From contig OZ242296.1 in the NCBI GenBank assembly GCA_965207735.1, positions 3,448,782 through 3,512,781 on the forward strand: DNA of 64,000 bases, in the 5' to 3' direction. The notes under the pieces are model-generated. The model searched no databases. It was given only the letters and a program-made list of their open reading frames with translations, and had not been told where the DNA came from. Positions 1 through 24,442 of the stretch are shown piece after piece. Source of the stretch: Candidatus Versatilivorator sp. (lineage in GTDB: Bacteria; Acidobacteriota; Terriglobia; Versatilivoradales; Versatilivoraceae). Every line of letters begins with the position of its first letter. Position 1 is the first letter of the stretch. The translations under genes were made by a program, and so were the position numbers.

Positions 1-699
1 AGAGAGGCCAGGGAGCAGGAGCGCAAGCGCAGGGAAGCCGCTGAAAAGAAGTTCACCAACATGAAGTCGGCTTTCGACGAGGGGCGAAAGCTTTTCATGG
101 CCAAAAACTATGAGGCAGCCTCGGTGGCTTTTGGAAGGGCTGCGGAAATCGATCCCAGCCAGCATGTGGTGTTGGGCAACCTCGCCATCTCCTATCAAAG
201 GCTGAGGAAGTATGACCAGGCCGTCGAGAGCTACCGGAAAGCCATTGCCGCTCTAGCCGACAGACCCGATCCCCTGGCGGAGTCCGAGTATTATTTCAAC
301 ATCGGCATTGTCTATGGCAACCAGGGTGAACCGGAGCTGGCGGTGGAAGCCATGGAAAAGGCGGCCGAACTCGATCCCGGCAGGGCCGGACAGGCCTTTT
401 ACAACCTGGGCGTGGTGCTGAGCAACAGCGGCAAGAACGCGGCGGCCCTGGAGGCATTCAAGAAGGCCGTCGAGGAAGATCCGCGGCACGCCAACGCCCA
501 CTACCAGATCGGAATGGGCCTGGTAGGCATGGCCACATTCACTGCTGACGGCACGACGATTCCCGCGCCGGGCACCGTTGAGGCCTTCGAGAATTACCTG
601 CTGTATGAGCCCGAGGGAAGGTTTGCCGCACAGGCCAAGGCCATGATCCAAACCCTCTCGGCCAGCGTGCAAACGGAATTCAGCAAGGATGACGAATAG
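1..699 (+). CDS. TPR repeat protein (5'-partial; frame open to window start)
   Basis: ORF 61..699 has repeated TPR-like A/Y/G-rich 34-aa motifs (AxxNLA..Y..A...Y, ELDP). The frame upstream of the first Met stays open to position 1, so the gene probably starts outside the window. Confidence 0.6.
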   Translation, partial: REAREQERKRREAAEKKFTNMKSAFDEGRKLFMAKNYEAASVAFGRAAEIDPSQHVVLGNLAISYQRLRKYDQAVESYRKAIAALADRPDPLAESEYYFNIGIVYGNQGEPELAVEAMEKAAELDPGRAGQAFYNLGVVLSNSGKNAAALEAFKKAVEEDPRHANAHYQIGMGLVGMATFTADGTTIPAPGTVEAFENYLLYEPEGRFAAQAKAMIQTLSASVQTEFSKDDE

Positions 700-721
700 T
701 CAGGCGAGGGGGAAACCGGTC

Positions 722-1519
722 TCAGCTTTCCTTGAACTCCACTCCGTCCACTACCCAGTCCAGGCTGCCTCTCTTCAGGATCAACGAGGCTTCCAACCTT
801 GCGAATCCGGTCTCGCCTCTGGCAGCCAGAAATAGGGTGGTTCCCATGGTCATGCGATCGGTGTCGGTCTGAACCAGCGAGGTGACCTCAAAGGCAACGT
901 AGGCCGGATCTTCCGAACCCAGCAGGAATTCGCTCATCACCTGCTGATTCTCGAAACGGCTTTGGAACCCCTGCGTCAGCAGTTGGCTGGCTGCTTCAAC
1001 GTTGCGGTCGATGAGGTGCCTCATGAATCGCTTGGCCACCATCATGGCGAACTTGGCCCGCTTCTCGCTGGCCACGTTGAAGGGCATGATCGGCCGGCGG
1101 GGATCGGACCTGAGGAATTTGATGTCTTCGGCCACCCAGGCGCCCCTGATCTTCACGAACCGAATCTGCTCGTTGACCCGGCTGCTCACCTGGTTGTTGA
1201 GGTCGACCCAGGTGCTTTCCACCGAGACCTGGAACTTGTCCTTGCCCAGAGGAAATATGGCGGCAGGACTGAAGTCGAAGGCAGCGACCCGCCCGCTGCG
1301 CACTCGGATGGAGAGACGTTTGCCGCGAAGATAGCGCTTCTCCAAACCCGCTGTCATGAGCTTGCGGGCCTCGACGTTGTGCCTCAGCGTCCTGGCGCCC
1401 ATGAATGCCTTCACCGTGTTCACCTTGGAAGGGTCAGGCGAACCTTGCGGCAGCGCCGGGAAAGCAGGAATACAGGCCAGGGCGACTCCCAGACAAACCA
1501 GGCTGTGGACACCGCGCAT
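722..1519 (-). CDS. hypothetical secreted protein (SnoaL/NTF2-like C-terminus?)
   Basis: ORF 722..1576. The internal Met (MRGVHSLVCLGVALACIPAF) gives a plausible signal peptide. No recognisable catalytic motif. Confidence 0.4.
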   Translation of the reverse strand: MRGVHSLVCLGVALACIPAFPALPQGSPDPSKVNTVKAFMGARTLRHNVEARKLMTAGLEKRYLRGKRLSIRVRSGRVAAFDFSPAAIFPLGKDKFQVSVESTWVDLNNQVSSRVNEQIRFVKIRGAWVAEDIKFLRSDPRRPIMPFNVASEKRAKFAMMVAKRFMRHLIDRNVEAASQLLTQGFQSRFENQQVMSEFLLGSEDPAYVAFEVTSLVQTDTDRMTMGTTLFLAARGETGFARLEASLILKRGSLDWVVDGVEFKES

Positions 1520-1796
1520 TTTTGTCTTCACCGCTTTCTCCTCCCGAGCTGACGAGCGACGGATCCTTCCCGCCAAATTAGTGTACCCCGAATAGCGGCA
1601 GGATTCATCTCCCCCGTGGTGCTTTTCGGATAGAGGAGGAGACGGACGGGGGTTTCCAGCAGAGGCCGTGACCGGCCGGCCGAATTGACTTCAATCGGGT
1701 TTTTAGCTTAAATAATTGACCTAACAAGCTGCGGGTCAAGGGAATTGCGGGTATCTTCTTCCGCCGGGCGCCGAGCGGTCGGGCGGCCCGGTCGGC

Positions 1797-2636
1797 TTGC
1801 ATTTGGAATCGAACATGAACTTGCTCAAACAAGAGGCTGTCGGGAGCGACACGGTCTGGCCCGATATCCGTGAAGATGTCTCCCTCGAAGCAGCGCGCGA
1901 GCCTATCCTGGCCAGCTTTCTGCATTCCACCGTGCTCAACCACCAGAGCCTGGAGGACACGCTCAGCTTTCACCTTGCCGCCAAGCTGACCAGTCCCAGC
2001 CTGTCTCCCATGATGATTCGGGACGTCATCGACGAGGCGCTGAGCGACAGCGCTTCCATTCGAGCCGCGGTTCGAGAGGATCTGAGGGCCTTCCGCGACA
2101 GAGACCCCGCCTGCAACAGCTATGCCGAACCCCTGCTCTACTACAAGGGGTTCCATGCCCTGCAGTCCTACCGCGTGGCCCACTGGCTGTGGACGCAGGA
2201 GCGCCATCAGCTGGCGCTGCTGCTCCAGAACCGGATTTCGGAAGTCTTCCAGGTGGACATTCATCCGGCCGCCCGCATCGGCAAAGGGATCTTCATCGAC
2301 CATGGGACGGGCGTGGTTATCGGCGAGACAGCCGTGGTCGACGACATGGTCTCCATGTTGCACGCGGTGACGCTGGGCGGGACCGGCAAGGAGAGTGGAG
2401 ACCGGCATCCCAAAGTCCACCGCGGGGTCCTGATCGGCGCCGGCGCCAAGATCCTGGGCAACGTGCATGTGGGTGAGGGCGCCAAAGTCGGAGCCGGCAG
2501 CGTGGTTCTGAACGATGTCCCGCCCCACTGCACCGTCACCGGCGTTCCGGCCAAGGTGGTTGGATGCCCGGACGTGGATGAGCCCGCGGTCGAGATGGAC
2601 CACCAGATTCCCGAGCGACCCGGCGTTCAACCCTGA
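1797..2636 (+). CDS. cysE: serine O-acetyltransferase
   Basis: N-terminal SATase domain (YAEPLLYYKGFHALQSYRVAHWLW) followed by hexapeptide repeats (IHPAARIGKGIFIDHGTGVVIGETAVV). The start may be the Met at 1812. Confidence 0.85.
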   Translation: MHLESNMNLLKQEAVGSDTVWPDIREDVSLEAAREPILASFLHSTVLNHQSLEDTLSFHLAAKLTSPSLSPMMIRDVIDEALSDSASIRAAVREDLRAFRDRDPACNSYAEPLLYYKGFHALQSYRVAHWLWTQERHQLALLLQNRISEVFQVDIHPAARIGKGIFIDHGTGVVIGETAVVDDMVSMLHAVTLGGTGKESGDRHPKVHRGVLIGAGAKILGNVHVGEGAKVGAGSVVLNDVPPHCTVTGVPAKVVGCPDVDEPAVEMDHQIPERPGVQP

Positions 2637-2668
2637 TAAACCCGTCCAACACCACAACAGGGGACACC

Positions 2669-3331
2669 ATGAAACATCTGGGTCTTGCCCTTCTGATGGT
2701 CGCCTGGCTGGCCTGCGGTCGTTCATCGGTTCCGGAGGCGGGCTTCGTGCCCCTCTTTGACGGCAAGTCTCTTCAGGGTTGGCAAGCGGTGGAAAAGGTA
2801 GGTGAGGGCTACCTGGTGGAGAACGGAGTCCTGATCTGCCCCGCCGAGGGCGGGGGCAATCTCTTCAGCGAGCGGGAGTACTCGGACTTTGTCCTCCGCT
2901 TCGAGTTTCGCCTGCAGGAAGGTTCCAACAACGGGGTCGGCATCCGGGCGCCGCTGGTTGGAGACGCCGCTTACCAGGGGTTGGAAATCCAGGTCCTCGA
3001 CAACCACTCGCCCCGCTACAAGGACAAGCTCCGCCCTGCCCAGTATCACGGGTCGGTCTATGACCTGGCTCCGGCCAAGCGGGGGTTCCTGAAACCGACG
3101 GGAGAGTGGAACCAGGAGGAGATCCGTGCCGTGGGCCGCCAGATCACGGTGACCCTCAACGGCACGGTCATCGTCGATTTCGATCTGGATTCGGTGACCG
3201 ACAGCCAGGTTCTGGAGAAACACTCCGGAGTGGCGCGGAGCAGTGGACACATCGGATTCCTGGGGCACGGGACCAAAGTCGAGTTCCGGAACATTCGAAT
3301 CAAGGAAATTCGCCGGGAGTCCGAGCTGTAA
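2669..3331 (+). CDS. DUF1080 / 3-keto-disaccharide hydrolase family secreted protein
   Basis: Lipoprotein-like signal (LMVAWLACG). Hallmark DUF1080 motifs: FDGKSLQGWQ, ENGVL, GNLFS, FVLRFEFRL, NNGVGIRA, and a C-terminal FRNIRIKE. Confidence 0.75.
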   Translation: MKHLGLALLMVAWLACGRSSVPEAGFVPLFDGKSLQGWQAVEKVGEGYLVENGVLICPAEGGGNLFSEREYSDFVLRFEFRLQEGSNNGVGIRAPLVGDAAYQGLEIQVLDNHSPRYKDKLRPAQYHGSVYDLAPAKRGFLKPTGEWNQEEIRAVGRQITVTLNGTVIVDFDLDSVTDSQVLEKHSGVARSSGHIGFLGHGTKVEFRNIRIKEIRRESEL

Positions 3332-3571
3332 GAGGCTGCCAGCGGCGCACGAGCCCGGTAGTGCAGGGGCCCGGCTTGTCTGAAACAACCGACAAACGAC
3401 AAAAGAAAAAAGACTTATCCACGAAGGGCCACTAAGGCGCGGGAGAAGACTCAAGAGGGATGGGGCGAAGGTCGGCAAGGGGGTCAAGGAAGGACACAAG
3501 ACAAAGAGGATTTGTCCGCGGAGGAGCAAGTGGGGGCGCTTCCCACTGCATCGTGATTTACAGGGATTATT

Positions 3572-3726
3572 AACATCGATGTACAGGATTCACAGGATTC
3601 TTCAGGAAACGGCCAGCTTCTAATGCCGGGAATCCGCAAATCCGCACCGGATCACCGCCCGAGTTGGCTTCTGGTGCAGGAAGCTCTCGTCCTGTTAATC
3701 CTGTGCATCCTGTGCATCGATGTTCA
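3572..3726. repeat. MITE-like element, family 1
   Basis: TIR-like arms around the core ATCCTGTnnATCGATGTTCA at 3572-3598 and 3698-3726, ~100 bp apart. Sits inside a larger repeat (~3395-4000) whose copy recurs at 24016-24430. Other copies lie at 8178-8328, 24298-24326 and 32509-32544. Confidence 0.55.
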
Positions 3727-3811
3727 ATGGGTAGAAAATCGTGCTAACCGAACAGGGTCCTTGTTCCCGACCGGCTATGAAGATTCCTTGTTTCACTCTA
3801 AAGGAAAACGG

Positions 3812-3932
3812 CGAACCACGAATGGACACGAAGTCATACCAGGGTAGCAGCGTTGCAGAAGCATTGTGGTGCCGCTTCTCGTTCGAGTGAGTCCACCTGC
3901 ATTCGTGTGAATTCGTGTCCATTCGTGGTTCG
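3812..3932. repeat. long perfect hairpin (21-bp stem, ~79-nt loop)
   Basis: cgaaccacgaatggacacgaa (3812-3832) is the exact reverse complement of ttcgtgtccattcgtggttcg (3912-3932). The loop contains ATTCGTGT direct repeats. Absent from the 24 kb copy of the surrounding repeat. Confidence 0.6.
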
Positions 3933-4056
3933 TCTTTATTCAGCGATCGATTGTTTTTCCTCGTAATGATCCGCATGGCAGGGCGGGAGACCGGCTAATG
4001 TCCTCCCCGGGCGCCGGTCTGCAGTCCCATGCTCAACGGTCTGAAAGAGTCCCCCA

Positions 4057-4839
4057 TTGTCTGCCCCTGCCAAGGCTCCGGAACGCTTTCTGGGACGGGT
4101 CGAATACTATCGAAAGTATCGGCCCGGCTACCCCGAGGGCCTGCTCGAATGGCTGAAGGAACTGTCGGCCCTGAAACCTTCCCACCGCGTCGCCGACATC
4201 GGCTCCGGGACGGGCCTGCTGGCGGAGCTATTCCTGCGGCAGGGCTACCCGGTGGTGGGTGTCGAGCCCAATCCCGAGATGCGGCGGACGGCTGAATCTC
4301 ACCTGAAGCGCTACCCCCGCTTCCGGACCATCGATGGGCGAGCGGAAGCCACCACCCTCGGCAGCCGGTCGGTGGATCTCATCGTCGCCGGCCAAGCCTT
4401 CCACTGGTTCCCGATCGACCGCACCCGAGAGGAGTTCCAACGCATCACCAAACCTCCGGCCTGTGCGGTCCTGGCCTGGAACCAGCGCAAGACCGAAAGC
4501 ACGGGGTTCCTGAGGGCCTACGAGAAGTTGTTGCTGCGGCACGGCACCGACTACGCCCGGGTTCGCCACCAGAACATCGGCCAGCCCCAACTGCAGGCTT
4601 TCTTCGGTCCACAAGCAATTCACAACAAGACTCTGGCCAACTCTCAGGTCTTCGACCGGGAGGGCCTCATCGGGCGCACCCTCTCCTGCTCTTTCGTGCC
4701 GTTGCCCGGACAGCCGGGCCACCGGTCCCTGATGCGGGCGCTGGACCGGATTTTTAAGGAGTGGCAGGTCGAAGGAAGGGTTACCTTCGAATACGACACC
4801 CTGGTCTATGCCGGAAGGCTACACCCCAACCCGCGGTGA
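4057..4839 (+). CDS. class I SAM-dependent methyltransferase
   Basis: Motif I VADIGSGTGLLAELF with a methyltransferase type-11-like fold. Confidence 0.8.
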   Translation: MSAPAKAPERFLGRVEYYRKYRPGYPEGLLEWLKELSALKPSHRVADIGSGTGLLAELFLRQGYPVVGVEPNPEMRRTAESHLKRYPRFRTIDGRAEATTLGSRSVDLIVAGQAFHWFPIDRTREEFQRITKPPACAVLAWNQRKTESTGFLRAYEKLLLRHGTDYARVRHQNIGQPQLQAFFGPQAIHNKTLANSQVFDREGLIGRTLSCSFVPLPGQPGHRSLMRALDRIFKEWQVEGRVTFEYDTLVYAGRLHPNPR

Positions 4840-4966
4840 CTCGGCCAGCCCGGGGGACTGGCCCGGGAATGTATACTAACCGGCGCCTGGCGACGCCCCG
4901 GTAACACGCAGTGACACCCGCTGCCGGGCCAAAACGCCGAGCCTGTAGGCACTCCCCATCTCCCGG

Positions 4967-6370
4967 TTGACCCGGGATCTTAGTCCCATGACCGACTCGT
5001 CACCCGCGAACCGGACGGAAACGGATCTCGAACGTCTGGACAAGCAGACCCTGTGGCACCCCTTCACTCAAATGAAGGAGTGGATGGAATCTCCTCAACT
5101 GGTGATCGAGCGGGGCCGGGGAGTCTACTTGTACGACACCCGGGGAAGGAAGTATCTGGATGGAGTCTCTTCCCTTTGGGCCAACATTCACGGCCACTCC
5201 CACCCCCACATCGTGCGGGCCATCCGCCGCCAACTGGACCGCCTGGACCACAGCTCCCTGCTGGGGCTGACCAACGCTCCCGCGGCGCAACTGGCCGGTA
5301 AGCTGGTCGAGCTCACGCCCCCGAACCTGACCCGGGTCTTCTTTTCGGACGACGGAGCCACGGCCGTGGAGATCGCCCTCAAGATGTCGTTCCAGTACTG
5401 GAGAAACCAGGGGCGGCAATGGGACTCCAAGAAGACGTTCGTGGCCTTCTCCAACGCCTATCACGGGGATACCCTGGGGTCGGTGAGCGTGGGTGGGGTG
5501 CGGCTCTTCCACGAGGTCTTCCGGCCTCTTCTTTTCCCGACCATCAGGGTCCCCTATCCCTATTGCTACCGATGCCCGCTGGGAAAGCAGCCGCCGAACT
5601 GTGAGATCGACCAGCTCCGGGAATTCGAACAGGTGCTGCGGACCCGCCATCGCGAGATCTGCGGCGTGGTGGTGGAGCCCATGATTCAGGGGGCGGGGGG
5701 AATGGTGCCCATGCCCGATGGCTTCCTGGGGAAACTGACCGAGCTGACCCGGCGTTTCGGGGTTCACCTGATCCTGGATGAGGTGGCAACCGGATTCGGC
5801 AGAACCGGCAGGATGCTGGCCCTGGAACACGAGGGCGTCCAGCCCGATTTTCTGGCCCTGGCCAAGGGAATCACCGGCGGCACGCTGCCATTGGCGGCCA
5901 CCCTGACCAGCGAGGAGATCTTCGAGTCCTTTCTGGGGGAGTACGAGGAGTTCAAGTCCTTTTTTCACGGACACACCTACACGGGGAATCCGCTGGCCTG
6001 CGCGGCCGCCCTGGCCAACCTGGAGGTCTTCAGCAAGGAGAAGACTCTGCAGAAGTTGCAGGGGAAAATCACCTATCTGACCAAGGCGCTGCGGCGCATG
6101 TGGGAACTGCCCTGCGTCGGGGACGTGCGACAACTGGGGTTCATGGCGGGAATCGAGCTGGTGCGGGATCGCGGCAGCAGGCAGCCTTTTCCGCTGGGAC
6201 GCCGCATGGGACACCGAGTGGTTCTGCAGGCCCGGCGGCGCGGCGTCCTCCTGAGGCCCCTCGGCGACACCGTTGTGCTGATGCCCCCGCTGTCGATCAC
6301 CCGGCCCCAATTGAAAACGCTGGTGGAGGTTACCTACAATAGCATCCAGGCCGCTTGGGAAGAGGAGTGA
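4967..6370 (+). CDS. bioA: adenosylmethionine-8-amino-7-oxononanoate aminotransferase
   Basis: Class-III PLP aminotransferase. LWHPFTQ, SSLWANIHGHSHP, GGMVPMP, LILDEVATGFGRTG and the Lys region ALAKGITGG are BioA-typical. Confidence 0.85.
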   Translation: MTRDLSPMTDSSPANRTETDLERLDKQTLWHPFTQMKEWMESPQLVIERGRGVYLYDTRGRKYLDGVSSLWANIHGHSHPHIVRAIRRQLDRLDHSSLLGLTNAPAAQLAGKLVELTPPNLTRVFFSDDGATAVEIALKMSFQYWRNQGRQWDSKKTFVAFSNAYHGDTLGSVSVGGVRLFHEVFRPLLFPTIRVPYPYCYRCPLGKQPPNCEIDQLREFEQVLRTRHREICGVVVEPMIQGAGGMVPMPDGFLGKLTELTRRFGVHLILDEVATGFGRTGRMLALEHEGVQPDFLALAKGITGGTLPLAATLTSEEIFESFLGEYEEFKSFFHGHTYTGNPLACAAALANLEVFSKEKTLQKLQGKITYLTKALRRMWELPCVGDVRQLGFMAGIELVRDRGSRQPFPLGRRMGHRVVLQARRRGVLLRPLGDTVVLMPPLSITRPQLKTLVEVTYNSIQAAWEEE

Positions 6371-6405
6371 CCCCGGTCCACCAAGCGCATAGAGAATGAG
6401 GCAAT

Positions 6406-7446
6406 ATGAAATTCATTTGGAGAACACGTCTGGCGCCGCTGTGTTTGCTGTCGGCTCTCGCCGCCTGCCAGGCGCCGGATGAGCCTGAAAACGCGGAACG
6501 CCGCCTGCGCAACCTGCGTCAATTGACCTTTGGAGGGGAGAATGCCGAAGCCTACTTCTCCTCCGACGGTCAGCGCCTGATATTTCAAGCGACCCGCGAC
6601 GGCGGCCAGTGCGACCAGATCTTCGTGATGGGCACCGACGGCAGCGGCATCACCCGGGTCAGCAGCGGCAAGGGCCGCACCACCTGCGCCTATTTTCTCA
6701 AGGACAGCCAGCGCTTCGTCTACGCCTCGACCCACCTGGGCAGTGAAAATTGTCCGCCTCGACCCGACTTTTCCCGGGGATACGTGTGGGCCGTCTACCC
6801 CGACTACGACATATTCCTCTCCGATTTCAACCAGGGCCTTACCCGCTTGACCGACACGCCGGGCTATGACGCCGAAGCCACCCTTTCTCCCGACGGAAAA
6901 AAGATCGTATTCACCTCCATGAGGGATGGAGACCTGGAGCTTTACTCCATGAACACCGATGGGTCGGGGGTCCAACGGCTTACCCACACCCTCGGTTACG
7001 ACGGGGGCGCCTTCTACTCCCCCGACAGTCAAAAGATCGTCTACCGCGCCTCGCACCCCACCGATGAGGCCGCCAAAACCAAGTACCGGGACCTGCTGAG
7101 CCGAAACCTGATCGAGCCCAGCCAGCTCGACATCTTCGTGATGAATGCCGACGGCAGCGACCGGGTTCAGGTGACCCGCAACGGCGCCGCCAACTTCTGT
7201 CCCTTCTTCCATCCGGACGGCCGGCGGATCATCTTTGCCTCCAACCTGGGCGACCCCAGCGGCCGCAACTTCGATCTCTACCTGATCGACATCGACGGAA
7301 CCAATCTGGAACAGGTCACCTTCGACGAGACTTTCGACGGATTCCCGATGTTCTCCCCGGACGGGAAGCAACTGGTCTTCGCCTCCAACCGCCACGGAAA
7401 AGTTCGCGGCGAGACCAACGTCTTCATCGCCGACTGGGTGGAGTAG
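6406..7446 (+). CDS. TolB-like WD40/PD40 beta-propeller repeat protein (secreted)
   Basis: Signal peptide, then repeated PD40 motifs (SPDGKKIVFTSMRDGDLELY, SPDSQKIVY, HPDGRRIIFASN, SPDGKQLVFASNR). Confidence 0.7.
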   Translation: MKFIWRTRLAPLCLLSALAACQAPDEPENAERRLRNLRQLTFGGENAEAYFSSDGQRLIFQATRDGGQCDQIFVMGTDGSGITRVSSGKGRTTCAYFLKDSQRFVYASTHLGSENCPPRPDFSRGYVWAVYPDYDIFLSDFNQGLTRLTDTPGYDAEATLSPDGKKIVFTSMRDGDLELYSMNTDGSGVQRLTHTLGYDGGAFYSPDSQKIVYRASHPTDEAAKTKYRDLLSRNLIEPSQLDIFVMNADGSDRVQVTRNGAANFCPFFHPDGRRIIFASNLGDPSGRNFDLYLIDIDGTNLEQVTFDETFDGFPMFSPDGKQLVFASNRHGKVRGETNVFIADWVE

Positions 7447-8078: not shown

Positions 8079-8177
8079 GAAAAATGGGGAGTCACGGAAG
8101 CCGGGCCGCCAGGTGAAGGCTGATACGGAAGCGGAGATGCCGGACCGGCGCCGAGGATCGATATTTTTTTCCACTAT

Positions 8178-8328
8178 GAACATCGATAGACAGGATGAAC
8201 AGGACGAGAGGGGGCTGCACGAGAAGCTGGCTTGGCAGATGATCCGGTGTGGGCCTACGTATGCCCAGGATTACAAGACACCAGACTCGTAAAACCAAAT
8301 CCTGTATATCCTGTCTATCGATGTGAAC
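8178..8328. repeat. MITE-like element, family 1 (inverted orientation)
   Basis: Arms gaacatcgatagacaggatgaacagg (8178-8203) and atcctgtatatcctgtctatcgatgtgaac (8299-8328) are inverted copies of the family-1 motif. The core is homologous to the 3599-3697 core in reverse orientation. Confidence 0.55.
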
Positions 8329-8528
8329 TTAAAACATCGTCCCGAGGGGCAGTGCTGTGGGTTCAACCGGAGCCATGGCTGAAACATGCCGGCTCCGGCG
8401 CTTCCAAACCGACCATTCGCAAGCCTGTCCTCTCACCGCCGATACAGGTTACAATGGGGCCGCCCAACCGCCGCCACCGCGGTTCGCGGCCACCGACCCA
8501 TGCCGGTCGACACTCGCCGAGGAGTTCC

Positions 8529-12612: not shown

Positions 12613-12890
12613 CATAGACGACTTTAAGGCCGTTCCCCATGGGTCCGCTGGTCATGTCGCCAAGCCCAACCGGCGCAAGCTCATTATTCCTCCCACCACC
12701 AACACTGCCAATTCGCCGAACGACGGCGACGCCTTCGGCAACTGGAAGGGTAAATGTGCACGATTGAGAGCATTTCCGGGACCACGCTTCGTGACCAACC
12801 GGGCAAAAGGAAACAAATCATCCTGGACTGAAGGTGCCGATCATTCAGTGTGCTAATGGCGTGAAATATTCGCTGTTAGCGAAATAAGTC

Positions 12891-12919
12891 TTGACTTCCA
12901 GCTCCGAAATGTTTATTTT
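12891..12919 (+). promoter_or_regulatory. sigma70-like promoter (TTGACT-N17-TATTTT) upstream of the XRE-RT module
   Basis: -35 TTGACT at 12891-12896, a 17-nt spacer, then -10 TATTTT at 12914-12919. Sits in a low-GC non-coding leader. Confidence 0.35.
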
Positions 12920-12926
12920 CAAGATG

Positions 12927-13378
12927 TTTGGAAAATACGGAAGTAAAAGTCATCACACCCTGGGTTGGCTTCGGTCAACCCGAGGAGGGGAAACCCTCTA
13001 CCGCTTACTGCAGCAATCACCCTCTCTCCTCAGTGGTGGTCGCTGAGCGAAGCGAGACCCAACCAATGACCCGTTGGGTCTCTGACACATTTGGATTTAG
13101 CTGCCACGTTCCGTCTTTCTGTTGGTGATGACCTCATTCCGCAATTCGGCGGGTGAGCAACAGAAAGGAGGTGAGAAAATGCTCTCACTGGGAACCAAAC
13201 CGTGGCGGCGGCGACCGAAGAGCGGGGGTAAGCAGTGTAGATGGCTACGTAATCCGCGCCTGCTTCGGACAGCTATCCTTATAGGCATCTGGGCCTATCG
13301 TCTATGGAGGATTTGCCGGGCGCTTAATGGTATTTTCGGAGGCTAGGTCGCTTTCCACTGTGTCAAATTACAACCGGA
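12927..13378 (+). ncRNA. candidate structured non-coding leader / retron msr-msd candidate
   Basis: ~450 nt with no credible ORF directly upstream of the XRE-RT genes. Perfect hairpins at 12962-12981 (6-bp stem) and 13054-13082 (10-bp stem, 9-nt loop). An 8-bp inverted repeat, GAAAATAC (12929-12936) with GTATTTTC (13330-13337), flanks the region and resembles a retron a1/a2 pair. Confidence 0.3.
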
Positions 13379-13723
13379 TTGGTAAGGATGGCTGTTGACG
13401 TACTATCAGAAGCACTTCGGCTGATTCGAGTGTTTCACGATGTAAAACAAAAACAATTGGCGGAACAATTGGGTATCTCGAAGTCGTATCTTTCAGAGAT
13501 CGAACGAGGTAAGAAAATACCCTCCATTGAGGTCATTCAGAAATACGCCGCTGAGTTTCAAATGCCAGTTTCGTCCATTCTTTTTTTCGCCGAGCAGTTG
13601 GTCGACCCAAACCGGAAACCTCCAGATGCCGACCGTGTAAGAGGAATCATTGCCGGAAGGGTCATCAGTTTCCTGCAGTTCATCGAAGCAAAAGCGAAAG
13701 AACATGCCGAAGAAGCGCACTAA
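13379..13723 (+). CDS. XRE-family helix-turn-helix DNA-binding protein
   Basis: HTH_XRE signature QKQLAEQLGISKSYLSEIERGKKIPSIEVIQKYAAEF. The stop overlaps the RT start by 20 nt, which suggests translational coupling. Confidence 0.7.
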   Translation: MVRMAVDVLSEALRLIRVFHDVKQKQLAEQLGISKSYLSEIERGKKIPSIEVIQKYAAEFQMPVSSILFFAEQLVDPNRKPPDADRVRGIIAGRVISFLQFIEAKAKEHAEEAH

Positions 13724-14594
13724 ATGCTACGCGGAGCAGGATAGCCCCTTCTATAAGCTCCGCTCGAAGGCGAAACTTGCAAATCTTCTCTTTCTCAACG
13801 TCGATAAATTAGAGTTTCTTGCGGAATCCGAGGACCTATACTTCGATTTCCCCAAGAAGAAAATGAGTGGCGGTTTCCGCCCGATCAGTGCGCCGCGTGC
13901 CGATCTCAAGATTGTACAGAAGAGAATTGCAGACTTGCTTCAACGCATCACTCCGCCGGATTATCTGTTTGCGCCGGTTTGCGGGCGTTCTTATGTGGAC
14001 AATGCCAAGCGGCACTTGGGAGCCAGCTCAGTTCGACACCTAGATATCGAGGATTTCTTCCCGAGTTGCACCGCAAATAAAGTCATATGGTTTTTTCGAA
14101 AGCGAATGGAATGCTCCCCGGACGTTGCAGTACTCCTTCGTGGCGTTGTCACAAGGCGTGGTTCGTTGCCACAGGGCAGCCCATGCAGTCCGATACTAGC
14201 GTATCTCTGCTATGTGGATATGTGGGAAGAAATTGAACGCCTAGTAGGCGAGAGTAGTTGCCAACTGAGTGTCTACGCCGACGACCTGACAATTTCAGGA
14301 GAAATGGTCCCGGAGAGTCTTATTTGGGAAATAAAACAAATACTGTTCCGACACGGTTTCCGACACAAACGCAGCAAGGAACGGAGCAAGATATACAAAC
14401 CTACAAAGATAACCGGTGTAATCCTCAATGGAAACCAGCTTCTCGTGCCGAACCGGCAGCACCAGAGACTCTATCAAGTTCGTCAGAAGTTGAAGGTTTC
14501 CCGCTCGCCTGAGCACCGCAGGCAGCTTAAGGCACAACTGGTCGGGCGAGAATCACAGTTCCGCCAGATTGTCGGAACTCCGCAAAGTCAGTAG
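13704..14594 (+). CDS. retron-type reverse transcriptase
   Basis: RT domains: GGFRPISAPRADLKIVQKRI (RT1/2), NAKRH (retron NAxxH motif), LDIEDFFPS (motif A), LPQGSPCSPILAYL (B'), VYADDLTISG (YADD), and KITGVILNG (VTG-like). ~297 aa. Lower GC than flanking DNA. Confidence 0.85.
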   Translation: MPKKRTKCYAEQDSPFYKLRSKAKLANLLFLNVDKLEFLAESEDLYFDFPKKKMSGGFRPISAPRADLKIVQKRIADLLQRITPPDYLFAPVCGRSYVDNAKRHLGASSVRHLDIEDFFPSCTANKVIWFFRKRMECSPDVAVLLRGVVTRRGSLPQGSPCSPILAYLCYVDMWEEIERLVGESSCQLSVYADDLTISGEMVPESLIWEIKQILFRHGFRHKRSKERSKIYKPTKITGVILNGNQLLVPNRQHQRLYQVRQKLKVSRSPEHRRQLKAQLVGRESQFRQIVGTPQSQ

Positions 14595-14603
14595 ACCCAC
14601 CAC

Positions 14604-14636
14604 GGGACTCTTGCTCAACTGGCAAGAGAAGAGTCC
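14604..14636 (+). terminator. hairpin immediately 3' of the RT stop
   Basis: gggactcttgctcaactggcaagagaagagtcc: outer stem GGACTC/GAGTCC and inner stem TTGC/GCAA. No clear U-tract, so it may be an RNA structural element rather than an intrinsic terminator. Confidence 0.3.
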
Positions 14637-14868
14637 ATAAATAGCAAGTACTCTCCAACCGTGGACTAATCGACAAGAAACGAGGATATTGGTGTCGCGA
14701 CATGTTTGCGGCATTGGCCGCTCGAGGGACAATGCGTCCCACCGCCGGTCCGCGTTCCGTCCGGTTGAGCTCCCAGAAATCAGCTTCGCCAGGATATGCT
14801 ATCCTTTCCACCAAAAACTTCCTGGCTAATGAAGTGCTGGCATCATCTCCGATGAGAGACTGTGCAAG

Positions 14869-16050
14869 ATGAATCCTGAAACGAGTCCGTTCAGCCCCGG
14901 ACAACCCGTGCCGATTGAGTTTTTTATTGGGCGCATCCGTGAGGTCGAGCGTCTGCGGGGCATGGTAAGGGCTAGTACACAAGGCAAATTCCGAATCGGA
15001 TTTGTCAGCGGAGAACGGGGCATCGGCAAGAGTTCCCTGGCGTCGTTCGTGCGCTACCTTTCAGAGCACGAGAGCCAAGTCGCAGGATGGCATGTCTTTC
15101 TCGGCGGCGTTGAGGATTTGAATGAGATGCTTCGAAGGACCTTCGATCGCCTGCTGAAGGAAAGCATGGACAAACCCTGGCATGAGCAAATCAGGAACTT
15201 TTTTGGAAACCACGTGCGTCAAGTGGGTCTGTTCGGGGTCACTTTGGAGTTGAATCTCCAGGAAAGCGACTGGTCAACGCTCGCCCATGATTTCGTGCCG
15301 ACCGTCAGGCGGCTTCTGAACGAAATCAAGGACCAGAAGCGTGCGCTATTTCTCATCCTGGATGACATCAACGGTCTCGCGGGTTCCGAAGTTTTCGCCA
15401 ACTGGCTGAAAAGCACCGTGGACGAGATCTCCACGTCCCAACAGAAAATGCCTCTCTGCATTCTAGTTGTCGGCCTTGAGGAGAGGCGCCAGGAGCTGGT
15501 GTCGAAGCAACCGTCTCTTGCGCGCGTCTTCGAGTTGATCGACATCGCCCCCTGGTCTGACGATGAAGCCATGGACTTCTACCGGAAGTCATTCGACGCC
15601 GTGGGCGCTAAGGTTGCCGACAGCGACATGCGCCAACTCGTCCGATTCACCGGCGGACTTCCTGTTCTGGCCCACGAGATCGGCGACGCCGTCTGGCGCA
15701 CGGCCGAGGGTCCGGAAATCGAGTCAAAAGAAGTATGGGAAGGAATCTTGACCGCAGCCGAGGTGATCGGCCGGAAACTGCTGCAACCCCAAGTGTTCAG
15801 GGCAATTCGCAGTGAGCGTTACCGATCCATTCTTCGAAAAATGTCGGGCGCGCCCCGGATGAGCTTTGGAAGATCAGAACTCATGGGACGTCTGTCGGAC
15901 AACGAAAGAAAGGTCATGGACAACTTCCTGCGACGCATGAAACGGCTCGGAGCGCTGGAAACCGATCCCGAGGTCAAAGGTGGATACCAATTCCCCAACC
16001 TCCTCCACATGCTTTATTTCTGGATTGAATCCCAGCGGATTTCCCGATGA
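14869..16050 (+). CDS. P-loop NTPase (AAA_16/ATPase_2-like, minimal STAND-like) associated with the retron RT
   Basis: N-terminal FIGRIREVERL motif, then Walker A GERGIGKSSL and Walker B LFLILDDINGL, with a helical C-terminal half. Shares the island's reduced GC. Confidence 0.7.
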   Translation: MNPETSPFSPGQPVPIEFFIGRIREVERLRGMVRASTQGKFRIGFVSGERGIGKSSLASFVRYLSEHESQVAGWHVFLGGVEDLNEMLRRTFDRLLKESMDKPWHEQIRNFFGNHVRQVGLFGVTLELNLQESDWSTLAHDFVPTVRRLLNEIKDQKRALFLILDDINGLAGSEVFANWLKSTVDEISTSQQKMPLCILVVGLEERRQELVSKQPSLARVFELIDIAPWSDDEAMDFYRKSFDAVGAKVADSDMRQLVRFTGGLPVLAHEIGDAVWRTAEGPEIESKEVWEGILTAAEVIGRKLLQPQVFRAIRSERYRSILRKMSGAPRMSFGRSELMGRLSDNERKVMDNFLRRMKRLGALETDPEVKGGYQFPNLLHMLYFWIESQRISR

Positions 16051-16363: not shown

Positions 16364-19060
16364 ATGCGTGAGACTCTGCTTAGCTACCTGCCCGAGTTTC
16401 TGGACCGCGGCGAGGACACGGCGCTTATGGGCCGGTCCGGGCTGCGGACCGACTACTGGTCCTATGGCAGGCTGGCCCGGACTTCCTTCCAGGTGGCCCG
16501 GGAACTGGGCTCACGGGGACTCGGCCTGGGGGACCGACTGCTGTTGCGGGAAGACAACTCCCCCGAATGGGTGGCCACCTTCCTGGGGTGCCTGATGCGT
16601 GGGGTGGTCGTGGTTCCCCTGGATGTTCAGAGCTCTCCCGAGTTCGTGGCCGGCATCGAGCACCAGACCCAACCCAAGCTGGTTCTTGGAGGTGGCCCCG
16701 GCGCCTCACTTGATGACCTCCAGTCGCCGGTGGATTCTGTCGCGGCTCTTTGCCGACGCGCGACCGCACAGGTGCCGACTCCCGACTGGAGTCATGCCGG
16801 CAAGGTCACTGCCGACCACCTGGCCGAGATCGTGTTTACCTCGGGGACCACGGCGGCGCCCAAGGGGATTCGACTCACCCATAGAAACTTGCTGGCCAAT
16901 CTGACTCCACTCGAGACCGAGATCCGGAAATATGTCAAGTGGGCGGCTCCGGTCCATCCCATCCGCTTCCTGAGCCTGCTGCCACTCAGCCATGTCTTCG
17001 GCCAGATGATGGGCATTTTCGTGCCGCCTCTGCTTGGTGGCCAGGCTCTCTTTCTCAATACCCTCAATCCCTCTGAGATCATCTCGGCCATTCGCCGGGA
17101 GCGGATCTCGATGCTGGCCACCGTTCCCCGCATCCTGGAGCTGCTGCGGGACAAGATCGAGCGGGACGAGGCCGCCCAAGATAGCCGGCCCCCGCTGGTC
17201 GAGCTTTTCGAGCGCAGCCACGGTCATCACTGGCTGCGTCATTGGTGGACCTTTCGCCACGTCCGCCGCCGATTCGGCTGGAAGTTCTGGGCTTTCCTTT
17301 CGGGAGGCGCAACCCTCGATTCCGGCACCGAGGAGTTCTGGAAGAGGTTGGGCTATGCCGTCATGCAGGGGTACGGAATGACCGAAACGGCGGCCGTCAT
17401 CAGCCTTGCCCACCCCCTTCGACCCGGCCGCGGCTCGATCGGCAAACCCATGCCCGGCCAGGAAATCAAGCTGGACGAAGGGGGAGAGATCCTGGTGAGA
17501 GGCCGCAACATCTCGCCCGGCTACTGGGGGGCGGAGGATGCGCCCCTGACCGACGAGGAGGGTTGGCTGCGAACCGGGGACCTGGGCCAACGGGACGCCA
17601 GGGGAAACCTCTATTTCCGCGGCAGGCGCAAGGAGGTCATCGTCACCTCAGCGGGCTTGAACGTCTACCCCGCCGATATCGAAACGGTTCTCAACCGGCA
17701 ACCCGAGATCGGCGCCAGCGCGGTGGTGGGAGTGAACGGAGCGCAGGGCCCCGAACCGGTGGCCGTGCTCATCCTGAGAAGCCCGGAGGCGGACCCTTCC
17801 ACCGCGGTCCAACGCGCCAACCAGCACCTCAGCCCCTACCAGCAGATCCGGCACTGGGTGGTCTGGCCCGAGCGCGATTTTCCGCGGACGGCCACTCAGA
17901 AGGTACGCAAGCGGGACCTGGTCCGGTTCGCGAGCCGGCAGGGAGCGGAACCGGGCGGTCAGGCTGGAGAGGAGCAGGGAAGCCTGCTGGGCGAAATCCT
18001 GACACTGGTCGAGGGCATCACCGGGACCTCGCCGCGGCGGCGGGACCGCGAAGCCAATCTGACCTCCGATCTCAAGCTGGATTCCCTGGCCAGGGTCGCG
18101 CTGATCACCCAATTGGAAGATCGCTTCCGGATGGACCTGGACGAATCCAAAGTCACCGAAGCTCTTACTCTGGGTGACCTGGAAAGGCTGCTCCGCCGCC
18201 CGGACGGTCTACCGGAGGCCGGCCGGGGCGAGGCGGCTCCTCCAAGTCCTGAAACCGGTGGCGACCCGCGGGCTCCATCGGGACCACGCCCGGACCCGGG
18301 CTCCTCGCGGTCGCACCCGGAAACTTCCGTCAGGCCCTGGCGCCCTTATCCCTACCCCTACTGGTCCTTGAGGCGGCCCGCCACCTGGATGCGCTTCCTG
18401 TTCCAGCACTGTCTCATCTGGCCGCTCACCCATTTGCTCTGCTGGACCCGGGTGCGTGGACGAAGACACTGGCGCGGACTTCGGGAGCCCGTGCTGGTGA
18501 TCGCCAACCACGTGACCTTTTTCGATCCGGCGCTCGTCCTGGCCCGAATGCCCTGGCGCTACCGGAACCGCCTGGCTGTTGCCATGATCGGAGAAAGGCT
18601 GAGGGACTTTCGATACCCGCCGCCTGGGCGCGGGCTTGCCCGCTTCAGCGACTACCTGGCCTACGGCGCGACTGCCGGCGGGTTCAATGCCTTTCCGCTG
18701 CCCAGGCAAACCGGGTTCCGGCGCAGCTTCGACTACGCCGGGGAGGCCATGGATCGCGGCTACAGCGTCCTGGTTTTTCCGGAGGGATCACGCACCAGGG
18801 ATGGCGAAATGCAGCCCTTCCAGGCTGGAATCGGGCTGCTGGCGGCCGGTCTGGGTGCCCCGGTCGTCCCCGCCAGGATCGAAGGATTGTTTGAGCTCAA
18901 GAAAAGGAGATTCGGAGGAATCCGCTGGCCCTTCACCCGGCCCGGTCAGGTTTCCGTCACCTTCGGTCCACCGCTGCGGCCCTCGCCCTCGGACTCTCCC
19001 CAGGACCTGACCCGGGAGTTGGAGAAACGGGTCAGAGGATTGAGTCGCCGAAAGGCCTGA
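16364..19060 (+). CDS. tri-domain acyl-CoA/acyl-ACP synthetase - carrier protein - lysophospholipid acyltransferase (Aas-like fusion)
   Basis: AMP-binding domain (TSGTTAAPKG, GYGMTETA, LRTGDLG, KEVIVTSAGLNVYP). Central PP-binding segment (DLKLDSLARVALITQLE). C-terminal PlsC acyltransferase (NHVTFFD, FPEGSRTRDG). Confidence 0.8.
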   Translation: MRETLLSYLPEFLDRGEDTALMGRSGLRTDYWSYGRLARTSFQVARELGSRGLGLGDRLLLREDNSPEWVATFLGCLMRGVVVVPLDVQSSPEFVAGIEHQTQPKLVLGGGPGASLDDLQSPVDSVAALCRRATAQVPTPDWSHAGKVTADHLAEIVFTSGTTAAPKGIRLTHRNLLANLTPLETEIRKYVKWAAPVHPIRFLSLLPLSHVFGQMMGIFVPPLLGGQALFLNTLNPSEIISAIRRERISMLATVPRILELLRDKIERDEAAQDSRPPLVELFERSHGHHWLRHWWTFRHVRRRFGWKFWAFLSGGATLDSGTEEFWKRLGYAVMQGYGMTETAAVISLAHPLRPGRGSIGKPMPGQEIKLDEGGEILVRGRNISPGYWGAEDAPLTDEEGWLRTGDLGQRDARGNLYFRGRRKEVIVTSAGLNVYPADIETVLNRQPEIGASAVVGVNGAQGPEPVAVLILRSPEADPSTAVQRANQHLSPYQQIRHWVVWPERDFPRTATQKVRKRDLVRFASRQGAEPGGQAGEEQGSLLGEILTLVEGITGTSPRRRDREANLTSDLKLDSLARVALITQLEDRFRMDLDESKVTEALTLGDLERLLRRPDGLPEAGRGEAAPPSPETGGDPRAPSGPRPDPGSSRSHPETSVRPWRPYPYPYWSLRRPATWMRFLFQHCLIWPLTHLLCWTRVRGRRHWRGLREPVLVIANHVTFFDPALVLARMPWRYRNRLAVAMIGERLRDFRYPPPGRGLARFSDYLAYGATAGGFNAFPLPRQTGFRRSFDYAGEAMDRGYSVLVFPEGSRTRDGEMQPFQAGIGLLAAGLGAPVVPARIEGLFELKKRRFGGIRWPFTRPGQVSVTFGPPLRPSPSDSPQDLTRELEKRVRGLSRRKA

Positions 19061-19088
19061 AACAACCGAGCGCTATCCGCAAAGGACA

Positions 19089-19300
19089 CCCACCCGGGAG
19101 CGCGGGCGTCCCGCCCGCCTTCTCTCCCTTTGGCTACCGCTGAGTTTTCCAGCGATGCGGCAGCCGGCCATCCTGCCGGCGGGAACCGCCTGGGTCCGGC
19201 CGAAGGAGAGCCATGGCGCCGGTGCCGGTCGATCCGGGTGGAGGAGATGGGCGAGGCCGCGGGAAGACTTGTGCGGGCGGGACGCCCGCGCTCCCGGGGG
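19089..19300. repeat. MITE-like element, family 2 (30-bp TIRs)
   Basis: cccacccgggagcgcgggcgtcccgcccgc (19089-19118) and its inverted partner gcgggcgggacgcccgcgctcccgggggg (19273-19300). The ~150-bp core is the reverse complement of the core at 50461-50612. Confidence 0.6.
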
Positions 19301-19397
19301 GCTTCATCTCCTGACAGGGTCACACCAGGGACGCAAAATTGCAGGAGCATTCCGGCACCGCACGGACAGTCAGGGCCGTGGGCCGCCGCGAGGGAAT

Positions 19398-20516
19398 TTA
19401 CAGCTTGCCGGCGATGGCCTCGGCCATCTGAAGGGTGGTGCTGGCGCCTCCCATGTCGTAGGTCCGCACCCGGCCTTCGCGGATGACTTCTCCCACGGCC
19501 TCCTCCAGCCGTTGGCTCTTGTGATCCTCGGACAGGAAGTCCAGCATCATTTTGGCCGCCATAATGGTGGCGATAGGGTTGACCTTGGACTGCCCCACGT
19601 ATTTGGGCGCCGAGCCGTGGGTCGGCTCGAAGACGGCCAGCCTCTCGCCGATGTTTCCGGAGCAGGCAAACCCCAGTCCGCCTACCATCTGGGCGCACAG
19701 ATCCGAGACGATATCCCCGAACAGGTTGGGCGCGACCAGGACGTCATAGTCCAGGGGGTTCTTGAGCAGCCACATGGCCATGGCGTCCACGTTGGCATGG
19801 TCCCAGGCGATCTCCGGGTAGGAAGCCGCGATGCGCCCGGCCGCCTCCAGGAACAGCCCGTCGGTGGCCCGTACCACGTTGGCCTTGTGCACCACTGTCA
19901 CCCTCTTGCGACGGTGGTCTCGGGCAAACTGGAAGGCAGCCCGGATGATCCGCTCCGAGCCCTTGCGGGAATTGATTTTGCAGGAGATGGCCCACTCGTC
20001 CGGAGCCAGTCCCTTGAAGGGAGCAAAGGAAGGCGAGATCTCCTCCAGCAGACGGGACAGTCTCTCCGGCACGGGATGAAATTCCACGCCGGAATAGAGA
20101 TCTTCCGTATTCTCGCGAAAGATGACCAGATCGATTGCTTCTCGAACGTTGAGGGGATTGCCGGCAAAGGCCCGGCAGGGTCGCAGGCAAACGTAGAGAT
20201 CGAAGAACTGGCGCAGGCGCACGATGGGGGAACGATAGACCAAGCCCTGGCCGCGGAGCCGCGGCGCCAGTTCCTGCCCGGCTTCTCGCGCCGGCTTGGA
20301 GGTGATGGCTCCGAACAGGGCGGCATCCACCTGCTTCAACAGGTCTATGGTGCGGCCGGGAAGCGGGTCTCCTTCCCGGCGCCAGAATTCCCAGCCAATG
20401 TCGCCCGGAAGATACTCCGCATCCAACCCTAGACGATCCAGCACGATCCGGGCGGCCTCCAGGACCTCTCCACCTATCCCGTCTCCCGGCAGCCAGGCGA
20501 TCTTGTATTTGGGCAT
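19398..20516 (-). CDS. isocitrate/isopropylmalate dehydrogenase family protein
   Basis: KIAWLPGDGIGGEV, the R/Y substrate motifs (RENTEDLYSG), NLFGDIVSDL, and the GSAPKYVGQ region. Start set at MPKYK. Confidence 0.8.
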   Translation of the reverse strand: MPKYKIAWLPGDGIGGEVLEAARIVLDRLGLDAEYLPGDIGWEFWRREGDPLPGRTIDLLKQVDAALFGAITSKPAREAGQELAPRLRGQGLVYRSPIVRLRQFFDLYVCLRPCRAFAGNPLNVREAIDLVIFRENTEDLYSGVEFHPVPERLSRLLEEISPSFAPFKGLAPDEWAISCKINSRKGSERIIRAAFQFARDHRRKRVTVVHKANVVRATDGLFLEAAGRIAASYPEIAWDHANVDAMAMWLLKNPLDYDVLVAPNLFGDIVSDLCAQMVGGLGFACSGNIGERLAVFEPTHGSAPKYVGQSKVNPIATIMAAKMMLDFLSEDHKSQRLEEAVGEVIREGRVRTYDMGGASTTLQMAEAIAGKL

Positions 20517-20522
20517 GCACAC

Positions 20523-20700
20523 TCCATAATACTACAGATATAGTATATTATTGGCGCATCAGGCGCCAGCTAATCCTTGGATTACAGGACGGCGAAACCG
20601 ACTACCCGCTTTATCTACTACTATACTAGTTTATATGGCTCCTTGGTCCTCCCCGAACCGGCGTGTCGTCCACTGCAATCTACTAGAATAATAGTAGATT
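20523..20700. promoter_or_regulatory. AT-rich palindromic operator-like cluster upstream of the dehydrogenase gene
   Basis: Palindromes atactacagatatagtat, tggcgcATCAGgcgcca, TAATCCttGGATTA, tctactactatactagt, and atctactaGAATAAtagtagat share the half-site CTACTA/TAGTAG. Strikingly AT-rich for this genome. Confidence 0.4.
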
Positions 20701-20771
20701 CTCGACACCCCCCTCCAGGACGGCAAAGCGCTTGCCCTCCCGAACGGCGTTCCGGCCGCGGCTTTCCGCCT

Positions 20772-21890: not shown

Positions 21891-22214
21891 GGGTCCGGGC
21901 CCTTTCCCGGTCGGGACCGAGCCGTTAGAAACCGGCGTCTTCCCCGGGGATTCTCTGTTAGAATGGCTGTCCTTTGCGGTTCAGACAGACCTTCAAGATT
22001 GCCGGCAGCCGGGCGGAGCGGCTTTGCACGCCGCCAACAGTTGCGGGTGGACAGTCCGGGGTTCCCGACGGGCCGGCCACTCCGGCCTGCCCGTGTCCAG
22101 CCGGGCAGCCCCTGACACGTCCACGTGCAGCCGGTCCGGCAAACAGAGTGAGTCAAACACGAAAGCCAAGTCCAATGCAAGCCGGCCAACCCATTAATTC
22201 AACCAGGAGGATGC

Positions 22215-24430: not shown

Positions 24431-24442
24431 ACTCGTCCGTCA

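Follow-up and report, generated by a model that had tools for sequence, protein, structure and literature searches.

Mosaic islands of probably mobile, non-coding repeat modules in the intergenic DNA of a Versatilivorator-like acidobacterium

The repeat island downstream of the DUF1080 gene

A stretch of 64,000 nucleotides of contig OZ242296.1 (hereafter "the window") was analysed, which comes from an organism close to Candidatus Versatilivorator (Acidobacteriota, Terriglobia). The subject of this work is the spacer between the genes for a 3-keto-disaccharide hydrolase (DUF1080, 2669-3331) and a class I methyltransferase (4057-4839), in which an earlier note, based on inspection of the letters, had described a composite dispersed repeat, termed here "copy 1". 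The note had placed it at 3395-4000; a repeat island is indeed present there, but it is somewhat larger, as orthology sets its limits at 3364-4025, with repeat sequence proper stopping at 3990/3991. The island and its component modules are as follows:

3364-4025, plus strand: repeat island copy 1, which takes up the entire variable spacer from the DUF1080 gene to the methyltransferase gene, with module order A-S-B-T-C-Z
3357-3392, plus strand: junction motif GCAGGGGCCCGGCTTGTCTGAAACAAC, composed of a Z-end-like sequence and a CTGAAACAA head
3405-3485, plus strand: module A, with the head TTATCCACGAAGGGCCAC (10-mer CCACGAAGGG) and, after it, an AAGGG tract rich in purines
3486-3559, plus strand: module S, a spacer segment whose only other match is in locus L086 (4758-4803)
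3560-3728, plus strand: module B, a foldback of about 165 nt, with arms at 3573-3597 (minus strand) and 3699-3723 (plus strand) that fit the pattern TCCTGTnnATCCTGTnnATCSATGT
3729-3800, plus strand: module T, TCAATnnGTAGAAAAyCG...GGTCCTTGTTCCCGA...ATGAAGATTC..TTTCACTC
3801-3940, plus strand: module C, a hairpin of about 130 nt with 33-nt arms at 3807-3839 and 3905-3937
3941-3990, plus strand: module Z, TTTTTCCTCGTAATGATCCGCATGGCAGGGCGGG, with a short G+C hairpin, forming the right end of the repeat island

Modules B and C share an architecture of inverted arms built of short phased units. In B the inverted pair (3572-3599 with 3697-3724) is 93% identical, each arm consists of tandem 9-mers (ATCCTGTnn twice, then ATCSATGT), and the predicted fold is a hairpin of -79 kcal/mol (z -7.5). 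The arms of C contain a perfect 21-bp stem (3812-3832 with 3912-3932) and, like the head of A, are made of tandem 10-mers, ATTCGTGTnn (CCACGAAkGG on the other strand); the predicted fold of C has -67.8 kcal/mol (z -7.0). Module A exhibits a period of 10 according to Tandem Repeats Finder (TRF), and the length of its purine tract varies between copies. Module C splits the T-Z unit, which is contiguous in eight other copies (copy 2 described below, L016, L035, L010, L053, L086, L042 and L015; L numbers denote loci of other genomes), and a diverged duplication of TTGTTTCnCTC is found on both of its sides. The junction motif GCAGGGGCCCGGCTTGTCTGAAACAAC occurs four times in the corresponding spacer of L203, where it closes each tandem unit of about 141 nt; a related sequence, GGCTTGCCTGAAACAA, comes after Z in L042, L112 and L015, and CCTGAAACAA also opens modules at 19059 and 32441 of the window.

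Further copies in the window

Copies of the modules were found at six other places in the window, including the second island already recognized in the earlier note ("copy 2"):

23979-24471, plus strand: repeat island copy 2, comprising A2, the right part of B, T and Z
8165-8331, minus strand: copy of module B, with arms at 8180-8204 and 8300-8324, kept at the orthologous place in L123
19075-19364, plus strand: module D, an element of about 215 nt whose 29-nt terminal inverted repeats are rich in G+C (19090-19118 and 19273-19301), and a piece of the C loop
28939-29691, plus strand: module F, in tandem duplication with a 453-nt period
32440-32807, plus strand: composite of the second type, E1-E2-C(right half)-Z, in which the B site (ACATCGATGT, 32505-32514) and the D site (about 32664) are empty
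50417-50756, minus strand: reversed copies of module D (50417-50646) and of an A head (50724-50756)

Copy 2 consists of A2 (24004-24250, two units of about 119 nt), the right 77 nt of B (24250-24328, with the arm at 24299-24323), T (24329-24398) and Z (24399-24425). The block-by-block homology of the two islands asserted in the earlier note was recovered by blastn, both for the central region (3685-3798 against 24285-24398, 81.6% identity, E 1e-26) and for the A block (3421-3481 against 24042-24102, 85%); the terminal GATCCGCnnGGCAGGGCGGG lies in both (3968-3987 and 24405-24424), and the inverted pair and the 21-bp hairpin are missing from copy 2, as stated there, for it has neither the left B arm nor any part of C. 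A local segmental duplication, or a chance low-complexity likeness of these two loci alone, has a negligible probability of accounting for this. The purine-rich, low-complexity look that might suggest chance is limited to module A, whereas the blast E-values go down to 1e-26, the pattern of the B arm has five matches in the window against 0.00 expected, and dozens of copies lie in other genomes between unrelated flanks. The flanks of the two islands are themselves unrelated, which together with the many further copies refutes a similarity confined to a duplicated segment.

Two of the other families deserve description in their own right. Each terminal inverted repeat of module D (CCCACCCGGGAGCGCGGGCGTCCCGCCCGC) is itself a G+C-rich palindrome, which makes D the most similar of the families to REPINs (hairpins formed by doublets of repetitive extragenic palindromic, REP, sequences); D has 33 blast matches among related loci, several per copy, and appears as a clean indel in the E2-C backbone. 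The two halves of module F are 95% identical, and each of them contains an inverted repeat of 31 nt (29267-29297 / 29354-29384). Fragments of F adjoin the methyltransferase gene in L123 and L203, and are present also in L016.

Module turnover at orthologous sites

The modules were mapped against about 30 related loci; all comparisons between genomes reported here are between metagenome-assembled genomes. Every module of copy 1 recurs in the window and in these loci with 70-95% identity, next to unrelated genes, so that the earlier description of a non-coding, dispersed composite repeat is borne out. Module B is represented by about 16 full-length copies (68-88% identity) in Versatilivorator/Terriglobia loci, T by copies in L016, L035, L010, L086, L111 and L112 in addition to copy 2, and A by further copies in L049, L015, L117 and L086. 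Whole composites also recur between unrelated genes, e.g. L086 4680-5091 matches 3408-3799 of the window at 83%.

Comparison of orthologous spacers reveals that their module content differs between closely related genomes. L203 (OX638355.1) is collinear with the window on both sides of copy 1 (1-3363 at 94.5%, 4026-6605 at 95.2%), and its DUF1080-methyltransferase spacer of 888 nt contains three to four tandem units of about 141 nt, an A head and then F; 86 nt (the A head) are common to both spacers, and the rest is composed of different modules. In L123, a metagenome contig 95.5% identical to the window from 4026 on, homology starts again at 3991, just after Z, and module F abuts the same junction (3990/3991). 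In L204 (OY760650.2), with flanks 87-88% identical, none of these modules is found in the spacer orthologous to copy 1; D and C-Z are present in the spacer orthologous to 1629-1793 of the window. Copy 2 and its surroundings can be compared with L206, which is collinear with 18117-27996 at 86-91% identity. At the site of copy 2, L206 has a spacer of about 190 nt with a degenerate A head alone and no part of B, T or Z; elsewhere, an insertion of C+D separates two genes of L206 whose counterparts in the window lie 23 nt apart, and after the gene ending at 19060 L206 has E1, a B arm and half of D, i.e. another set of modules than the window. Finally, V. vitaminiformans (L019) and Versatilivorator sp. 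OZ241970 (L111) differ at one orthologous spacer, whose flanks are about 90% identical, by about 300 nt of E1+B that L019 has and L111 lacks.

The cleanest events are seen in the second composite type. In an alignment of 32436-32800 of the window with L049, which included also L035, the backbone is 90-94.5% identical except for two clean indels, one of B (148 nt, with CATCGATG on each side, the empty site reading ACATCGATGT) and the other of D (about 235 nt, with ACACC on each side). These indels in a conserved backbone, together with C lying within T-Z, bear out the nested insertions proposed in the earlier note. Tandem amplification is exemplified by L117, with 3.6 units of 117 nt. Short-read contigs end inside the islands (L205 and L123), as expected of multi-copy repeats.

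Two side observations concern the same loci. In L081 (2562-2739) an insertion of about 225 nt lies within a B element, with the direct repeat TCCTsGACATCCG on each side, which represents a third level of nesting. In L206 (5950-8153, against 24443-26650 of the window; contig 91% identical) the counterpart of a 735-aa secreted protein is predicted as two separate genes (249 and 434 aa), and the N-terminus of this protein differs in L206 where the repeat island meets the start codon.

The B-arm motif in other phyla

The B-arm pattern TCCTGTnnATCCTGTnnATCSATGT, with 21 specified bases, was scanned over one genome per species, for which the calculated chance expectation is about 0.3 to 0.5 matches in the whole collection. 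At least 117 stretches of genome sequence, belonging to about ten phyla, contain it. Among the matches listed, the carriers are Dehalococcoidia (Chloroflexota), Acidobacteriota, Latescibacterota, Opitutales (Verrucomicrobiota), Planctomycetota, Gammaproteobacteria, Nitrospirae (Nitrospirota), Hydrogenedentes (Hydrogenedentota), Sumerlaeota, Gemmatimonadales (Gemmatimonadota) and Desulfobacteraceae; all of these genomes are metagenome-assembled, many have sponge or coral project names or are, by their record titles, symbionts of sponges or other marine hosts, and some, in about ten phyla, have many copies. Single-contig chromosomes are among the carriers, so that binning errors cannot account for this spread.

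Outside Acidobacteria only the B arms are shared, with the consensus wwA-TCCTGT-ny-ATCCTGT-ny-ATCSATGT-nAAT in the matches listed; in the same matches the A at position -1, although not included in the search pattern, is conserved at 97%. The arm pairs among them are arranged head-to-head in 59 cases and tail-to-tail in 2, with loops of 8-106 nt that have no conserved sequence, and many arms are solo. Complementarity between arms at the nn positions is above that of shuffled pairs in the outer half only and at chance level in the inner half, a comparison that is confounded by the genome-specific consensus. Arms of the C type occur also in loci from Sumerlaeota, Verrucomicrobiota, Pirellula and Opitutales. 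No B-arm motif was found in 480 kb of metagenome loci picked for an unrelated gene, and no description of it was found in the literature searched, nor in Rfam. The motif was detected in 5 viral contigs, and searches of plasmid and phage collections gave no match, although a low-complexity filter may have blunted one of them; on these grounds a phage or plasmid origin was rejected.

The Latescibacterota locus L023 (OZ241917.1, 1900-5700) contains seven B-type arms in 8 kb; three of these repeat in tandem with a period of 136-137 nt and have conserved flanks, so that in this phylum the motif belongs to a satellite-like repeat. Some genes end within a B arm, which gives their products a ...FKHG* tail. 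Two small genes have B-type hairpins on both sides and their stop codons in the arm (L072 1838-2245, ...FKHG*; L034 1176-1586, ...LGYG*); they putatively encode a GxxExxY/PD-(D/E)XK-like and a small metallopeptidase-like protein.

The regularity of the arms raises the question of whether the tandem 9-/10-bp boxes serve to bind a host protein (nucleoid-associated or a global regulator) at arrayed sites, in which case the modules would be domesticated regulatory or architectural DNA that spreads by recombination rather than by transposition. The nearly invariant positions with two free spacer positions and, in the matches listed, the 97% conserved A that the pattern did not require are what such sites might look like, as are the regular 9- and 10-bp phasing, the recurrence of the same boxes in many phyla and the chance-level complementarity at the inner nn positions. 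We nevertheless consider this explanation unlikely. The motif is absent from most genomes sampled as well as from the 480 kb of unselected loci, and a housekeeping factor does not explain such a patchy distribution; the head-to-head preference with variable loops (59 vs 2 among the matches listed) is a feature of foldback mobile DNA; presence or absence between 95%-identical genomes speaks against fixed regulatory sites; and association with particular gene families is lacking, no recurrent protein family having been found beside the motif in the 117 loci. The 10-bp phased GTG[G/T] may resemble MraZ boxes, and TTATCCACG a DnaA box; no weight is placed on either likeness.

Gene context and signals for RNA, coding or expression

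Motif copies are enriched outside open reading frames (ORFs), and the spacers that bear them are tandem in 51, divergent in 21 and convergent in 14 cases, the same proportions as for all spacers. B and D are found in both orientations relative to genes; A and T-Z face the downstream gene in 7/7 and 7/9 cases, a weak trend given that gene calls are crude and the copies non-independent. In one case a composite precedes the start of a divergent gene by 30 nt. The supposed tie of the repeat to 3' ends of carbohydrate-active genes does not hold, as no Pfam family matches the gene that precedes copy 2, and the modules occupy every type of spacer in either orientation. In several phyla the B motif lies 15-40 nt ahead of start codons; a role as a promoter or 5' untranslated region (UTR) element was considered and rejected, as the motif is oriented at random with respect to genes and occurs in spacers of every type. 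Possible likenesses to a sigma-54 promoter (the spacing being one base short by our count) and to the XerD arm of dif were likewise given no weight.

The earlier note had offered a shared 3'-UTR or small RNA (sRNA) module as one of its two explanations. More broadly, the modules might be transcribed functional RNAs, e.g. an sRNA derived from a 3' UTR, a hairpin for stabilisation or processing, or a transferable 5' leader, with the purine tract serving as a protein or ribosome sponge. The hairpins of B and C are very stable, and both islands lie between co-directional genes and are therefore probably transcribed; the orientation of A and T-Z towards the downstream gene would fit as well, and so would copy 2, where the start codon of the next gene is located 19 nt past Z and its first ~9 codons differ between the window and the L206 ortholog. 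Nevertheless, Rfam 15 gave no match to the window, the locus or eight loci from other phyla, for the former two even at E = 10, and for the latter nothing more than sub-threshold hairpin look-alikes. No compensatory covariation was found in B or T-Z beyond the arms, the RNAalifold covariation terms being positive (+1.3 and +1.45). A plus S has no structure as RNA (z 0.12), so that the purine tract is unstructured as well as variable in length. B and D take either orientation to genes, and the elements occur also in divergent promoter spacers. A scan for consensus promoters and terminators found nothing in copy 1, and in copy 2 no promoter and two weak terminator-like hairpins at the level of shuffled sequence. 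All this makes functional RNA quite an improbable explanation, and the sRNA/3'-UTR proposal finds no positive evidence. Nor was a conserved ORF found in the modules; for small ORFs in T-Z, reading of the alignments on both strands revealed neither conserved start codons nor conserved frames. On its reverse strand the B arm has ACAGGAUG repeats, which may resemble CsrA sites and would then favour an RNA role; this likeness was given no weight.

Probable mobility of the modules

The preceding comparisons establish a set of repeat families with hairpins, present or absent at orthologous sites and devoid of coding or RNA-family signal. On balance, the segment of copy 1 is probably a mosaic of non-autonomous, non-coding mobile repeat modules, similar to REPINs or miniature inverted-repeat transposable elements (MITEs) and shuffled by recombination, in Versatilivorator-like, sponge-type Acidobacteriota. 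Traits of MITEs are present: arms of 25-30 nt in B, 33 nt in C and 29 nt in D, small size, many dispersed copies and no conserved ORF. The excess of head-to-head pairs, the variable loops and the solo arms conform to the REPIN pattern. Of the two explanations put forward in the earlier note, the MITE-like mobile element is upheld by the turnover and the foldbacks, and the gene-specific 3'-UTR is not.

According to the scenario that we propose, B, C and D would be foldback or terminal-inverted-repeat elements of about 140-230 nt, gained and lost as units in intergenic DNA of any kind. An enzyme that acts in trans, from a gene elsewhere in the genome, would recognise the arms of B and C by their tandem 9-/10-bp boxes, and it may be a single-strand (HUH) transposase of the IS200/RAYT/TIRYT type that acts on the extruded hairpin. 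An HUH transposase appears somewhat more likely than a DDE transposase, considering the lack of a consistent target-site duplication, the hairpin doublet as a unit, the solo remnants and the presumed encoding of the enzyme elsewhere. Modules A, S, T, Z, E and F would be carried along, multiplied in tandem and exchanged by recombination at the shared junction sequences; tandem multiplication and junction recombination would give each spacer its own combination of modules. Effects on neighbouring genes, e.g. the new 5' end of the gene after copy 2, would be by-products.

Several points weigh against mobility. No transposase or RAYT-like gene was found beside any copy or in 1.5 Mb of locus sequence: the 117 loci have no transposase between or next to the arms, and the tblastn search of the 1.5 Mb for a RAYT-like gene used an approximate query. 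A consistent target-site duplication is also lacking, as 221 arm flanks read nAAT, which continues the inverted repeat, and form no direct repeat; CATCGATG is found on both sides of the Versatilivorator B copies only and is part of the palindromic arm end, and ACACC flanks two D copies and not a third. The partly conserved order of modules (A-B-T-C-Z; E1-B-E2-D-C-Z) and the tendency of A and T-Z to face the downstream gene could reflect function, and the strict 9-mer boxes with free nn positions across phyla might just as well mark where a host protein binds DNA or RNA. Moreover, no transposition event was seen directly, the comparisons being those of metagenome-assembled genomes. Individual modules may be host-protein arrays or functional RNAs.

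We further suggest, tentatively and with rather less than even confidence, that the B arm (A-TCCTGT-ny-ATCCTGT-ny-ATCSATGT-nAAT) and the related C arm (ATTCGTGTnn x2 then ATTCGTGGTT) represent an undescribed superfamily of foldback elements that has crossed phyla among uncultured bacteria. If so, its spread would imply a mobilising enzyme of broad host range that reads phased 9-/10-bp boxes, and DNA traffic between phyla inside holobionts. If the reading of copy 1 as a mobile mosaic is right, the intergenic DNA of these symbionts would turn over in the time that genomes take to diverge to 95% identity, and a few mobile modules could alter the 5' and 3' ends of ordinary genes. On the practical side, the islands disrupt short-read assemblies, and the motif offers an easy way to trace the elements in metagenomes.

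Other loci in the window

Two further loci were noted. A reverse transcriptase gene (13650-14594; Pfam RVT_1) has retron type VI as its best PADLOC match (RT_VI, E 1.5e-93) and is followed, up to 16050, by a STAND/AAA ATPase gene (AAA_16, nSTAND1), both genes with lower GC3 than their neighbours. The region 13650-16050 is probably a retron-type defence locus, and the 1-kb non-coding gap upstream of the reverse transcriptase gene (12616-13649) could hold the retron non-coding RNA. A connection of this reverse transcriptase with the repeats was considered, and nothing observed here ties the two together. On the minus strand, 38371-41803 is a low-GC3 block with DUF2806, DUF4238 and a type I restriction-modification specificity subunit (Methylase_S), which is probably an acquired defence island.

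Comparison with known systems

Small dispersed repeats of cyanobacteria and their heptamer short tandemly repeated repetitive (STRR) repeats are very small and nest in each other, and the foldback elements of Drosophila have inverted arms of tandem short units. The likeness of the modules described here to both is structural only; organisms and sequences differ. The bacterial interspersed mosaic elements (BIMEs) of Escherichia coli are intergenic clusters of a few repeat units and linker motifs in preferred orders, with number and combination varying from site to site. The islands have the same mosaic organisation, but their sequences are unrelated to BIMEs, and the modules are much longer (50-280 nt), include complete foldbacks and vary between 95%-identical genomes.

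MITEs such as the Correia/NEMIS elements of Neisseria, or RUP and the modular BOX of Streptococcus pneumoniae, are non-coding, about 100-250 nt long and bounded by 25-30-nt terminal inverted repeats; they are intergenic, lie in either orientation and sometimes overlap gene ends or alter expression signals of neighbours. Size, terminal inverted repeats and intergenic placing are alike here. The differences are that our modules have no constant target-site duplication, that their terminal repeats are built of phased sub-repeats, and that no parent insertion sequence with the same ends was found in the 117 loci.

The closest parallels are REP/REPIN sequences with their RAYT transposases and TIRtrons with TIRYT genes (Bertels & Rainey 2011, PMC3116915; Di Nocera et al. 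2013, PMC3733652), which are likewise short, extragenic, many-copy repeats. There, REP is given as a 20-40-nt palindrome with one end tagged GTAG (or CGTC), and families of terminal-inverted-repeat sequences with TIRYT genes are described in Acidobacteria (PMC3733652). The likeness extends to the head-to-head doublet hairpin as the active unit with singlets resembling remnants (59 vs 2 among the matches listed), to the absence of target-site duplication, and to the enzyme, which here too would be encoded by a single-copy gene elsewhere. Set against that REP structure, the B arms are not self-complementary and have no GTAG/CGTC tag, being composed, as are the C arms, of tandem 9-/10-bp boxes; moreover, no RAYT/TIRYT gene could be linked to the repeats by tblastn of the 1.5 Mb with the approximate query. 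The arm sequence is also common to about ten phyla, unlike REPIN-RAYT systems, which are described as vertically inherited and lineage-specific. The kind of element, an intergenic mosaic of REPIN- or MITE-like repeats, is a known one, whereas this family, with its phased 9-/10-mer arms and cross-phylum conservation, appears to be undescribed; a conserved hairpin repeat shared among phyla would be unusual for such systems and would point to horizontal spread and to a mobilising enzyme of its own.

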